Virus genome (UHGV): UHGV-1809322 | Length of the DNA stretch: 14,967 bases | Strand: one strand, 5' to 3' | Source of the DNA: a virus | Part shown: positions 7,427 to 14,967 of the stretch, piece after piece | Layout of the letters: each line of letters begins with the position of its first letter | Numbering within the stretch: the first letter of the stretch is position 1 | Position numbers and translations under genes: made by a program | Notes under the pieces: model-generated | What the model was told of the DNA's origin: nothing | Database searches by the model: none | The model's input: only the letters and a program-made list of their open reading frames with translations

Positions 7427-8182
7427 ATGCTCGATCAGCAATACCAAATTGACGCGTTTTACGCATTACGGGCCGCTGGTGGGTTAAAAACCCCGGAGTC
7501 CATTACGCTGTATCAGTCATCTATCACTCAGATCAACCGGCTGGTGGATGCAACAGCGGCACTCACACCAGATTCAATCCGATACCCCGCCGCTATACGC
7601 CCACTGGTATCCCGCCTTGATGCCATATCTGAAGACCTGCTGGATTCAGTAAAGCAAATTAAAGAGGTGATAAAACTGCTACAGGACCAGTCTGACCCGT
7701 CGGCCCTGCTAACCATTCAGATCGGCTGGGAGGTGTATTGCCGGTTCAACGAACTGACCGCTAACCCCGCAATTGTTGCGTTCATCGCGGATACAGAACT
7801 CCCGCAATCCATACTGACGACACTCACCAGTTTGTCCACGGCAGACCTGAATGCGTCCTTTGCGGTCCTGAACAACACAGTAATAGCGGGTGAGGGTACG
7901 CCACTGTTTGAGGTTCCTGCCGATGTGCTTGATGCTGCAGTGGACGCAATAACCGAATTTGAAGGCGATGTTCAGTCATACCAGGAATTGCTGGTGGCCG
8001 TAGAACGGGAGAAACAGGCGGCATTGACCAGCATTCAGATAGCAATGAGCTATTTCCAGAACGGCGTCACAGTGAGCATCCTCGATACCCTCTCACACGG
8101 CACATTTGTAGCGCCAGCTGTTGCCTGCATCGTACCTCAGACCGTGCTTGATGCGCTCGCTGCAGGGACCGTAACGGCGTAA
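7427..8182 (+). CDS. Hypothetical protein (251 aa), predicted largely helical; structural-module protein of unknown function
   Basis: Start 16 bp after the PAAR-like stop, with a GAGG SD. Ala/Leu/Thr-rich composition. No recognisable catalytic motif. Confidence 0.55.
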   Translation: MLDQQYQIDAFYALRAAGGLKTPESITLYQSSITQINRLVDATAALTPDSIRYPAAIRPLVSRLDAISEDLLDSVKQIKEVIKLLQDQSDPSALLTIQIGWEVYCRFNELTANPAIVAFIADTELPQSILTTLTSLSTADLNASFAVLNNTVIAGEGTPLFEVPADVLDAAVDAITEFEGDVQSYQELLVAVEREKQAALTSIQIAMSYFQNGVTVSILDTLSHGTFVAPAVACIVPQTVLDALAAGTVTA

Positions 8183-8272
8183 CGCCATAACTCCCAGCGG
8201 TGCACTTTCTCTATTCTGCTCGCGTCTTGTGCGTTGAGCGATAACGCGAGTTTGAATAGAAAAGAGGCCATC

Positions 8273-10087
8273 ATGTCAGATATTACCCCATATATGGATC
8301 AGGTCGCGGATATTCGCCAACGCGCCGCCCGCGTGCTCGCGTTTGCCAGCATTCCGCAATTCAAAGAAGGTGCATTCATCAAGGATCGAAAAGCCTGGGC
8401 TAAATCGATCGGCGAAGCCACTCACATGGACCCCCTTTTTGAATCCTACGGTCCAATTGTTTCCACCATTGTTGGTACCGCGTGGGCAAGCGCCCTGGCG
8501 GATTACGCTAACGAACGAGGTGAAATGCCGCGCGACGAACTGCTCGCCGCAGCGCATAAGGCCACGGAAAACCTGCTTCTGGAAGGCGCAAGTAAGTACA
8601 AAAACCAGAGCGTGCAGCTGCTGCTTGAAAGCGCGCAGAAAGATCTGAACGAAAACAAATTCCTGTTTGAGTCTGCGGATTCAGCCAACATTCCGGATCT
8701 GACCACCAGCCAGGGCATTATGCAGCTGGCTACGTTTGTGGCCATGATCCTGCCCGTTGCGCTCGGCGCACAGACCAGCGATGCGTGTACATTCGTACCG
8801 TGTGAGAAAGACCAGAACAAAATCTTCGAAATCATCAATATCGCCGGTAACTCATTCGGTGACCTGACCGCCGGTCAGGAAATTGATATGACCACCTCTG
8901 GTTATTACTCCCAGATGGCCCGTGTTCGCCTGTTCGCTGCAGATCAGCAGCCGAAGGGGACCAAACAGCGTCTGACATTCAAAGTTGAGGAAAGTGAGGG
9001 CGTTAAAGCGCCAATTCGCCCGAAACGTACCGTTCTGTACATCAACCGCAAGCCGACTGACCCGGACACAGGCAATAACGTGCTACTGCACAGTTTTGTG
9101 CATGTTGATAAAGACACGGGCGAAGAAAGCTCCATCACCCTCACCTGCCAGATCAACTATGACACAGGTGAGATCGCAGTTAACCCGTCCAACCCGTTCC
9201 CGGAAGGTTATGAGCTTGGCGTCGGTTACGAGCTGGACGTTGAAAAAGCACCGTCCCTTATCCCGACGATCAACCACAAAATGAAGGACTACCTGATTTA
9301 TCCTTCATTCTACGCGCTGGCAGCTGAACACACGCTGATTGCAGAACTGGAAATGCGCCGTGAGTTCAACTTTGAGTTGAGTTCCCTGTCATACCGTAGC
9401 CTGCGTGATTACATCTCGCACGAAATCGACATGATGCGCCTGTCCATCATGATCTGGCGTTGCATTCACGGTAGTAGCTATGATGTCGCCCTGCCGGATA
9501 GCCAGTTGTTTGAAAGCTGGTCTGGCCTACTGCGCAGTAAATTCAACCGGATTTCCGCCGACATGATTGACCGCACCCGGACCACCGGCGTAACTGGCAT
9601 GTACGCAGGTTCTGAAGCGTCGAATTTCATCAAGGCATTGCCGCCGACACTGTTCCAGCCAGCCCCGAATTACCGCCAGACGCCATATGTCCATTTCACG
9701 GGCACGCTCTTCGGTGTCTACAAAGTATTTGAGGTGCCACAGCCAATCTGTACGTCGCTGACGAAAAACCTCAAGAAAAACGGTGCTGAATTCAAGACCA
9801 ACAACATCCTCTGCTATGGCCGTGGTGATGGTATCGCTCAGGCGGGCTTTATTGCCGGTGATGCCATTCCGTTGATCCCGCTGGTACACGACACCACCCC
9901 GCAACTGCGCAACCGTACCACCATGTTCGGCAGCGCATTGAACATGATTCACCCACGCCGTGGTGAAGACTATTTCGAAATGCTGGAACTGACGTTCGAC
10001 AAAGCAGGCGCACTGGATCCCCGAAGCGGGAAATACATTGAACCTGCTCCGACCCCGGAACCTGAAGAAGTCACTCAGGCACCGTAA
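8273..10087 (+). CDS. Large hypothetical virion-module protein (~604 aa)
   Basis: Track ORF begins at a TTG at 8234. The ATG at 8273 is preceded by AAAAGAGG at optimal spacing and is the more plausible start (MSDITPYMDQ…). Long uninterrupted ORF with a Pro/Glu-rich C-terminal tail (EPAPTPEPEEVTQAP). Confidence 0.65.
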   Translation: MSDITPYMDQVADIRQRAARVLAFASIPQFKEGAFIKDRKAWAKSIGEATHMDPLFESYGPIVSTIVGTAWASALADYANERGEMPRDELLAAAHKATENLLLEGASKYKNQSVQLLLESAQKDLNENKFLFESADSANIPDLTTSQGIMQLATFVAMILPVALGAQTSDACTFVPCEKDQNKIFEIINIAGNSFGDLTAGQEIDMTTSGYYSQMARVRLFAADQQPKGTKQRLTFKVEESEGVKAPIRPKRTVLYINRKPTDPDTGNNVLLHSFVHVDKDTGEESSITLTCQINYDTGEIAVNPSNPFPEGYELGVGYELDVEKAPSLIPTINHKMKDYLIYPSFYALAAEHTLIAELEMRREFNFELSSLSYRSLRDYISHEIDMMRLSIMIWRCIHGSSYDVALPDSQLFESWSGLLRSKFNRISADMIDRTRTTGVTGMYAGSEASNFIKALPPTLFQPAPNYRQTPYVHFTGTLFGVYKVFEVPQPICTSLTKNLKKNGAEFKTNNILCYGRGDGIAQAGFIAGDAIPLIPLVHDTTPQLRNRTTMFGSALNMIHPRRGEDYFEMLELTFDKAGALDPRSGKYIEPAPTPEPEEVTQAP

Positions 10088-10107
10088 TTCAGCGAAATAT
10101 TCACAGC

Positions 10108-10126
10108 GCCCCGGCAAGGTCGGGGC
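10108..10126 (+). promoter_or_regulatory. GC-rich stem-loop (GCCCCG-gcaaggt-CGGGGC) just upstream of the SD of the next gene
   Basis: 6-bp all-GC stem with a 7-nt loop in the 50-bp intergenic gap, immediately 5' of the AGGAG SD for the gene starting at 10138. No U-tract, so not a classical terminator. Confidence 0.3.
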
Positions 10127-13830: not shown

Positions 13831-14390
13831 TGACACCACGCGAACTACTGGATGATGTGATCGGTCGGTTCCCCGTGTTGCTACACGACGATGATGACGC
13901 CCTGCGGCGTCTTCTCGTCCAAGCCCTGGGAACATACCAGGATCGGGCGGGTGTAATTCGCACCGTTCTTCTGGAGCGTGGTTTGGGGGAGTCAGCTCGC
14001 GAACTGCCTGATGATTTCCTCTATCAGGTTGGTGTGTGTGACAGTCTGGACGGTTTCATTTGCTCGTCAGTTATTGATGGAAAACTGGAACTGGAGTTGT
14101 GCGGTTGCATCAACTGGCCTCTTAAATTCCGGTACCTGGTCAATCTCCGTGAGATGGATATCGAAACCGGTACAGTTCCGCCAAATATTATCGGCATGGT
14201 TTCGAATTATCTGGAAATCCTGATAAAGATCCCCAACACGGACCGCCTGCGCACTGTCTCTATCGCCGGGAAACTGGACGTCTCCACACTACCGGATGAC
14301 GCGACGCTCTATGAGCGTAAAACCCAGCTCGAAAACGATATGGCCAACCTTCGCGCCATCCTCCCCATGTTTTCAATCTACCCATACTGA
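13830..14390 (+). CDS. Hypothetical structural-module protein (186 aa)
   Basis: Start overlaps the previous stop (TAATG translational coupling). Acidic N-terminal region. Confidence 0.55.
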   Translation: MTPRELLDDVIGRFPVLLHDDDDALRRLLVQALGTYQDRAGVIRTVLLERGLGESARELPDDFLYQVGVCDSLDGFICSSVIDGKLELELCGCINWPLKFRYLVNLREMDIETGTVPPNIIGMVSNYLEILIKIPNTDRLRTVSIAGKLDVSTLPDDATLYERKTQLENDMANLRAILPMFSIYPY

Positions 14391-14398
14391 GGGGCGCT

Positions 14399-14950
14399 AT
14401 GGCGACGACAGGCGGTTCTACTCTTTTTTCAGCTACCCCTACAGCAGAACAGCTGTTTCTGAAACAGTTGTCGCATCGACTGGTACACGCACGATTCGCA
14501 CAGGGTTGGGAGTGGGCCATTGTCGTTGATGCGTTCCCTGACATGGATTTCTATGCCAAAGACGTTACATACCCGATCGGTGCTGTGGAAGTTGATGAGA
14601 AAAATATTGGCTCTGGCTTCATCAACAAACCCAGTCGGCGCAATAGCGGCGCACTAACAATGGTCGTCCGGGATACGAAGGAAGGCCTGGTTTTGACCTG
14701 GGCGCGCAACGCAATGAATCGCGTAACGAACAAAGACGGCACCGTTAACCTTCCAGCCGCCTATCTCCAGACTATACGCATGTTTCATATCGTTGATGGA
14801 GCACTGATGCCCGAATCTGTTCACCTGGTAATCCCTACAGAAATCGGTGATATTACACGGGCGCGCGACCAGGTGACAGAGTTCCACACATTCCCCATCA
14901 CATTTACACGATACACATCATTTGAAACTCTCGAATTGGGGTTAGCGTAA
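14399..14950 (+). CDS. Hypothetical structural-module protein (183 aa); weak resemblance to tail-tube proteins
   Basis: Good SD (GAGGGG, ~5 nt spacing). Internal segment GFINKPSRRNSGALTMVVRDTKEGLVLTWARNAMN loosely matches a pattern I recall from a T4-type tail tube protein (low certainty). Confidence 0.5.
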   Translation: MATTGGSTLFSATPTAEQLFLKQLSHRLVHARFAQGWEWAIVVDAFPDMDFYAKDVTYPIGAVEVDEKNIGSGFINKPSRRNSGALTMVVRDTKEGLVLTWARNAMNRVTNKDGTVNLPAAYLQTIRMFHIVDGALMPESVHLVIPTEIGDITRARDQVTEFHTFPITFTRYTSFETLELGLA

Positions 14951-14967
14951 TGCCTATTGCTGAATTT
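14950..14967 (+). CDS. Start of a further operon gene (MPIAEF…), 3'-truncated by the window end
   Basis: ATG at 14950 overlaps the preceding TAA (TAATG), the same coupling geometry as at 13830. Confidence 0.35.

Follow-up and report, generated by a model that had tools for sequence, protein, structure and literature searches.

The window analysed here is a 14,967-nucleotide stretch of viral DNA (UHGV virus genome UHGV-1809322), in which positions 7427-14967 had been described in an initial annotation as a structural operon of an unrecognised family with an atypical gene order. This region is very probably the central operon of late (morphogenetic) genes in a myovirus of the P1 supergroup, a phage-plasmid in Escherichia coli and close relatives. 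It is a structural module of an already understood kind, from a rarely sampled lineage. Nine co-directional plus-strand open reading frames (ORFs) are tightly packed between 7127 and 14950, with ~97% of the sequence coding according to the ORF listing. Comparison by blastp with the proteins translated from the annotated P1 record identified one P1 orthologue for each of the nine (28-55% identity, E 7e-23 to 6e-179), and the orthologues of P1 23, 22, 21, pmgG, bplB, pmgC and tub share 40-53% identity (E 5e-41 to 6e-179) over near full length. The synteny comparison with P1-like phage-plasmids that had been proposed in the initial annotation showed that the order, upfC, upfB, 23, 22, 21, pmgG, bplB, pmgC and tub on one strand, is colinear with that in P1, D6, JK004 and an Enterobacter kobei plasmid, and tblastn coordinates are monotonic in all four.

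7127-7411, plus strand, PAAR gene, upfC homologue
7427-8182, plus strand, upfB homologue, 251 aa
8273-10087, plus strand, gene 23 homologue, 604 aa from the ATG at 8273; the ORF also opens at TTG 8234 (617 aa)
10138-11910, plus strand, gene 22 homologue, 590 aa
11915-12691, plus strand, gene 21 homologue, 258 aa
12742-13317, plus strand, pmgG homologue, 191 aa
13330-13830, plus strand, bplB homologue, 166 aa
13830-14390, plus strand, pmgC homologue, 186 aa
14399-14950, plus strand, tub homologue, 183 aa

As first noted, packed or overlapping genes follow the PAAR-like gene; there are eight, all on the plus strand, with gaps of -1 to 90 nt (in gene order 15, 90, 50, 4, 50, 12, -1 and 8 nt). The -1 gap is formed by the bplB stop and pmgC start sharing one base (TAATG, as read from the sequence). 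Relative to P1, none of the nine ORFs is broken or shortened, and the start/stop architecture is conserved. For the gene 23 homologue, the ATG at 8273 was chosen by gene callers on 3 independent contigs (604 aa) and the alignment to P1 gp23 opens there; it is more likely than the TTG to be the start.

Strong PHROG matches were found for all nine ORFs (E 1e-27 to 1e-153), with labels that include 'tail sheath', 'tail tube', 'PmgG-like' and 'PmgC-like', and because of these matches and the P1 orthologues the nine are considered real genes rather than chance ORFs. Pfam recognises the PAAR motif alone and is blank for the other eight, which is why the proteins could not be named in the initial annotation. 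NCBIfam gave no match for the UpfB and gp21 homologues, and the NCBI annotation of the proteins is hypothetical. The eight Pfam-blank proteins can now be named from P1 proteomics and cryo-electron microscopy (cryo-EM).

The blank Pfam results, the 'hypothetical' labels and the lack of a nucleotide match to phage records would also suit a phage family not recognised before, in which the gene order would be new. However, protein orthology and colinearity with P1, JK004 and D6, together with the matches to solved P1 structures described below, make that explanation extremely improbable. The order is not atypical. P1 is well characterised, its gene functions are known and its gene order is shared by the whole set of nine ORFs; a match of this kind is what the initial annotation had itself named as contradicting an unrecognised family. 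The sheath and tube genes are indeed non-adjacent in the window but, because the window order is the P1 order, this is the normal P1 arrangement. The suggestion of a divergent contractile-tail or head module from a phage-plasmid lineage is correct, the module comprising both tail and head genes, and the sheath-like and tube-like labels were on the right track. In tblastn searches, the two large proteins matched only P1-type phages (P1, P7, RCS47, SJ46, D6 and Cronobacter JK004), with 36-44% identity over almost the whole length.

Protein correspondence with P1

Seven of the nine proteins match chains in solved P1 structures (PDB phmmer, E 1e-32 to 1e-160). The roles of the P1 proteins are taken from cryo-EM studies (PMC12810830, PMC10304247, bioRxiv 10.1101/2025.07.21.665459) and from proteomics and knockouts (PMC9024508).

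The 'large protein' of the initial annotation is the major capsid protein, sharing 44.5% identity with P1 gp23 (E 6e-179) and matching Gp23 in PDB 9ukm (E 1e-159). P1 gp23 is cleaved between E120 and S121 (P1 cryo-EM and proteomics literature), and the maturation context is kept in the same aligned column, with LLLE119/S120 here and AMLE120/S121 in P1. The homologue is therefore most likely a precursor with an N-terminal propeptide of ~119 aa and a predicted cleavage. A 17-aa insert (capsid residues ~120-137, window 8630-8680) directly follows the predicted maturation site and carries a second L-F-E/S motif, and the protease cleavage site could have been shifted or duplicated by it. The E. kobei homologue has this insert, whereas P1, JK004 and D6 do not.

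The 590-aa protein, whose N-terminus had been described as sheath-like, is a homologue of P1 gp22, the contractile sheath. PHROG 1036 (tail sheath) and P1 structures (PDB 8jaj Gp22, 8jan and 9ay3) are both matched with E 6e-118. Identity to P1 gp22 is 42% over aa 175-588 and 38% over aa 3-119. The alignment reveals an insert of ~60 aa (residues ~104-170) that is low-complexity and rich in Pro, Glu, Thr and Ala. It falls in the counterpart of P1 domain III, which faces outward and spans residues 100-242 (PMC10304247). At this spot, the sheaths of E. kobei and D6 also have inserts, but their sequences differ from that of the window.

At the start of the operon, the UpfC homologue shares 55% identity with P1 UpfC over 94 of 94 aa, contains the Pfam PAAR_motif (28.4 bits), and matches UpfC in PDB 9vyi (E 1.7e-32) and T4 gp5.4 (E 1.6e-4). 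P1 UpfC is a monomeric, T4 gp5.4-like tail-spike tip (PMC12810830). The UpfB homologue is only 28% identical to P1 UpfB (E 7e-23) and belongs to PHROG 1559 (E 1.4e-40); P1 UpfB forms a trimeric 'tripod' at the spike tip (PMC12810830) and upfB is non-essential in P1 (PMC10695390).

Three small proteins had been listed ahead of the tube-like one, and they correspond to the tube-linking ring, the tube and the head-tail adaptor. The first shares 47.5% identity with P1 PmgG (PDB 9ay5_G/9vzk, E 3e-47), a hexameric, T4 gp48-like ring that links the tube at the baseplate-tube junction (PMC12810830, PMC9024508). The second is 53% identical to BplB (PDB 8jan/9ay2, E 1e-53; PHROG 1120 tail tube), the polymerising (major) tail tube protein of P1 (PMC10304247). 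The third shares 50.5% identity from residue 1 with PmgC (PDB 9ums, E 9e-50), the dodecameric adaptor of P1 that joins head (portal) and tail (PMC12810830). The 183-aa protein, which had been said to resemble tube proteins weakly, does have a tube fold, but it is not the polymerising tube. It is 45% identical to P1 Tub (PDB 9ay5_A/9vzk, E 2.6e-39; PHROG 1842), a hexameric tube initiator with a tube-like fold (PMC12810830), and the true tube is the 166-aa BplB (PDB 8jan).

The 258-aa 'bipolar protein' is the gp21 homologue (40% identity to P1 gp21; PHROG 1053). It is acidic and helical with a strongly basic C-terminus, and members of the family occur only in P1-like elements from Enterobacterales, Vibrio and Shewanella. 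Gene 21 of P1 is essential by CRISPR interference, with polar effects possible (PMC10695390), and P1 gp21 is present neither in the virion protein table (PMC9024508) nor in the cryo-EM models (PMC12810830). An AlphaFold2 model of the window protein (predicted local distance difference test score 80) predicts a helical bundle at residues 43-197, then a beta-hairpin at 200-213 and, at the C-terminus, two basic helices. No meaningful fold match to the model was found in PDB (best E 0.3) or BFVD, where the sole match is an uncharacterised protein of Bacillus phage SP-15 with a low TM-score. Older mutant studies are said, with some uncertainty, to have found P1 gene 21 mutants tail-defective. The P1 record labels gene 21 'baseplate or tail tube'. 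A scaffolding role was set aside on the basis of this label and those mutants, though uncertainly. The best guess, held with low confidence, is that the gp21 homologue is a non-virion tail or baseplate assembly factor.

The PAAR motif, the sheath and the tube-fold proteins are features that might also be seen in a phage-derived contractile injection device, such as a tailocin, an extracellular contractile injection system (eCIS) or a type VI secretion system (T6SS)-like apparatus, rather than a virus. Such a device has next to no likelihood here, as the operon includes a portal adaptor gene and one for a major capsid protein with a propeptide, each of its genes has a virion or assembly gene of P1 as its orthologue, and T6SS and eCIS hallmark families were not found by Pfam. 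With capsid and head-tail adaptor genes embedded in the operon, the T6SS, eCIS or tailocin reading was rejected.

Late promoter candidates and expression

Two candidates for a late promoter were identified in the window.

8198-8217, plus strand, candidate Lpa-type late promoter, CGGTGCACTT-TCTC-TATTCT; positional equivalent of P1 LP23
7077-7096, plus strand, second and weaker late-promoter candidate, CGGTGCATTT-N4-TTAGCCT region, ahead of the PAAR gene

In a P1 late promoter, four bases separate the -22 box from a TANNAT -10 (four examples in the record, with boxes AAGTTACTT, AAGTGACTT and AAATGACTA). The -10 of the 8198-8217 candidate ends 56 nt before the ATG at 8273, compared with 52 nt before gene 23 for P1 LP23. 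Alignment with LP23 of P1 and JK004 shows a shared GTG(C)ACTTTC and -10 spacing, with a 1-nt insertion, and the -22 box is GGTGCAC in the window but AAGTKACTT in P1. The same box, AGCGGTGCACTTTC, precedes gene 23 in the E. kobei plasmid, within an intergenic region that has otherwise diverged.

The whole E. kobei plasmid was scanned with CGGTGCACTT-N4-TANNNT, allowing up to 2 mismatches and using shuffled sequences as the chance baseline. Seven matches were found against a mean of ~2.4 in shuffles, and all seven are on the correct strand upstream of late genes, namely those for lysozyme and holin, a baseplate gene, 23, sit, the R/tail-fibre operon and the portal gene. The distance to the gene is about 25-61 nt for six of the seven and 189 nt for the tail-fibre match, and the box positions mirror those of P1 late promoters. 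The E. kobei plasmid also encodes an Lpa homologue (34% identity), and on the contig of the window itself the motif recurs ahead of sit (L005 14709). We infer that 8198-8217 is a lineage-specific Lpa-type late promoter. The diverged box suggests co-evolution of activator and promoter.

The weaker box at 7077-7096 has one mismatch to the CGGTGCACTTNNNNTANNNT pattern and a related CCGGTG...TAGCCT stretch is found at its place in the E. kobei plasmid. It may serve upfC and upfB. Scans of 6800-14967 for sigma-70 promoters and intrinsic terminators gave no more matches than in shuffled sequence.

Late in lytic growth, an Lpa-type activator would switch on the promoter just upstream of the capsid gene. 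A single long late transcript would then run from ~8220 through tub and beyond, and would be translated across the short gaps and the one overlapping stop/start. Heads and tails would be assembled separately and joined afterwards. The transcription pattern, activator dependence and particle production are set out here by analogy, with expression and assembly most likely proceeding as in P1.

Several potential RNA structures lie along this putative transcript. The capsid 5' leader (8218-8272) contains a possible long stem, CTCGCGT...ACGCGAG, enclosing the region up to the ribosome-binding site; folding of 8180-8275 gives -30.5 kcal/mol in total, and the stem is only partly conserved in the E. 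kobei plasmid. A GC-rich hairpin is found at the capsid-sheath junction (10108-10126, plus strand), where the intergenic stretch has a folding energy of -15.8 kcal/mol (RNAfold). This hairpin has no T-tract and was not called as an intrinsic terminator in the scan of 6800-14967. Hairpins of other sequence occur at the junction after gene 23 in the E. kobei plasmid, P1 and JK004. Another GC-rich hairpin (12698-12722, plus strand, -19.7 kcal/mol by RNAfold) lies between gene 21 and pmgG, a junction that also has hairpins in the E. kobei plasmid, P1 and D6; it too has no clear T-tract. The hairpins after genes 23 and 21 are unrelated in sequence among P1, JK004, D6 and the E. kobei plasmid but conserved in position, and may act as mRNA stabilisers or partial terminators.

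Distribution, completeness and cargo of the element

Megablast searches with 7000-14967 found no match among 50,697 phage records, including P1 and P7, and none among 5,426 complete E. coli genomes. Against plasmids, only two E. kobei records were matched (73%). Likewise, of 938 PLSDB plasmids with a gp23 homologue, only 2, both from E. kobei, exceed 60% identity. The initial annotation was thus right to speak of a poorly characterised lineage. The exact sheath protein is encoded on a 96,217-bp NCBI contig (GCA_054775975.1) and on two metagenome contigs, and capsid and gp21 proteins that are identical or >90% identical, and that NCBI names as Escherichia coli proteins, were found on 96-98 kb contigs. 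A scan of genome contigs with the sheath protein gave no confirmed relative.

The two E. kobei plasmids (NZ_CP156932.1 and NZ_CP104726.1) are mostly annotated as hypothetical proteins. NZ_CP156932 is a complete circular 95.8-kb P1-type element. Besides repA, parA, sit and dnaB, it has genes for a head protease, portal, a DarB-like giant helicase, baseplate proteins, terminase, a Cre-like recombinase, holin and lysozyme. The size of this plasmid, its repA and parA, and the 96,217-bp contig hint that the element may be maintained as a low-copy plasmid of about 90-100 kb.

An alternative is a P1-like plasmid that has decayed or been domesticated, either a cryptic phage-plasmid or a plasmid with captured phage genes, which would keep structural genes but produce no infectious phage. 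Plasmids with homologues of P1 structural genes, possibly defective, have been described (Pfeifer et al., PMC7969092), and the rarity of the element, with no match in complete E. coli genomes, and the cargo insertions beside the operon are in keeping with decay. However, all nine ORFs are intact with conserved starts and stops, several contigs as large as a full P1-type genome (96-98 kb) encode identical proteins, and the E. kobei relative keeps a complete morphogenetic, lysis and packaging set together with the promoter motifs. Decay is accordingly given only a small chance of being correct.

The assignment to a P1-supergroup late operon is preferred, and the following points count against it. 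The P1 consensus AAGTKACTW-N4-TANNAT is absent from the window, with none upstream of these genes, and a search for the P1 late-promoter consensus gave fewer matches than chance. The gp21 protein has no assigned mechanism, in P1 as well. Particle production and promoter use are deduced from the sequence, and the element could be a defective prophage-plasmid. The genes for Lpa, portal, terminase and replication lie outside the window, and completeness is judged from the E. kobei plasmid and from contig size.

Upstream of the operon, an ORF that runs off the 5' end of the window (82-2316, plus strand) encodes a P1 Dmt homologue in which C5-cytosine and N6-adenine (Dam-type) DNA methyltransferases are fused. 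A cargo block of ~4.8 kb (2317-7126) separates dmt from the PAAR gene and is not at this position in the E. kobei plasmid. Its minus-strand genes are at 3084-3887, 3884-4372, 4758-5351 and 5381-6910. The block includes an Ant1-like antirepressor gene and a gene for a 162-aa partner, a pair that the E. kobei plasmid has between pmgB and sit, and genes for 197-aa and 509-aa proteins that resemble signal-peptide proteins and were not assigned to any family. A 9-nt tandem repeat (6547-6643, ~10.8 copies) encodes a (PNL)n run in the 509-aa putative secreted protein, which is possibly a length-variable surface or periplasmic protein.

Downstream of the window, on the same 96-kb E. coli contig, a Tad2-like (PF11195) gene is located between pmgB and sit (L005 12925-13383). 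It is a candidate for anti-Thoeris counter-defence cargo inserted in the tail operon. The pmgB-sit site of the E. kobei plasmid is occupied by a different 5-kb cargo block.

Comparison with P1, D6, JK004 and the E. kobei plasmids

In the annotated P1 record, upfC-upfB is followed by a ppfA/mlp/upfA-repA-oriR-incA-parAB-parS block and then by 23-22-21-pmgG-bplB-pmgF. A second block, rlfAB-repL-kilA-ant-icd-c4-sim, separates pmgF from pmgC-tub-pmgB-sit. The P1 late operons are LP23 (23-22-21-pmgG-bplB-pmgF) and LPsit (pmgC-tub-pmgB-sit and onwards). Both blocks and pmgF are absent from the window, where the operon is contiguous, and because the replication/partition and immunity-I/lytic-replicon blocks are missing the LP23 and LPsit operons are fused. 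The window also differs from P1 in that dmt is on the same strand as upfC, whereas P1 dmt is divergent from it, and in the lengths of the capsid (+17 aa) and sheath (+~60 aa) proteins. There is no detectable nucleotide similarity to P1. JK004 keeps the P1-type interruptions.

In D6, the 22-21-pmgG-bplB-pmgC-tub genes are contiguous without an immunity or lytic-replicon block, and upfC-upfB lies upstream of 23 with no repA or par genes between. However, upfB and 23 of D6 are separated by four small ORFs, 23 and 22 by two ORFs, one of them with an immunoglobulin (Ig) domain, and tub and pmgB by repA, and the D6 proteins are 28-52% identical to those of the window, no closer than P1.

The order in E. 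kobei NZ_CP156932 is identical, PAAR-upfB-23-22-21-pmgG-bplB-pmgC-tub-pmgB. Eight of the nine proteins share 69-89% aa identity with those of the window and UpfB is the outlier (43%), while nucleotide identity is ~73% over part of the region. In the E. kobei plasmids, no 4.8-kb cargo block separates dmt from the PAAR gene, and the E. kobei Dam methylase, unlike that of the window, is not fused to a C5-methylase domain. The uninterrupted operon is thus not new, being already present in D6 and the E. kobei plasmids.

The element sits on a branch of the P1 supergroup that has rarely been sampled, at roughly similar distances from P1/JK004 (40-56%) and D6 (28-52%). The criterion of the International Committee on Taxonomy of Viruses for a genus is a nucleotide identity of about 70%. 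With no megablast match to P1 or P7 and protein identity of only 28-55%, the element falls outside genus Punavirus. Pfeifer et al. (PMC7969092) distinguished subgroups P1-g1 and P1-g2 (D6-like), in which the organisation is conserved but replication and partition genes are placed differently, and the weighted gene repertoire relatedness (wGRR) within P1-g2 is about 0.75 (PMC7969092). As judged from identities rather than wGRR, the element does not belong to P1-g2 either, its identity to D6 (28-52%) being not above that to P1.

It is quite possible, if a little short of probable, that the element belongs to a third, genus-level branch of the P1 supergroup that has kept an ancestral uninterrupted virion operon, and in which Lpa co-evolved with the changed box (GGTGCAC for AAGTKACTT). 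If so, the interleaving of plasmid, immunity and structural genes in P1 would have arisen by later insertions into a contiguous operon, and the lineage would offer a natural orthogonal pair of late activator and promoter. The contiguous operon helps to reconstruct how plasmid and immunity modules were inserted into the structural genes of P1. The analysis also documents a rare E. coli/Enterobacter phage-plasmid lineage that is about as far from P1 as D6.

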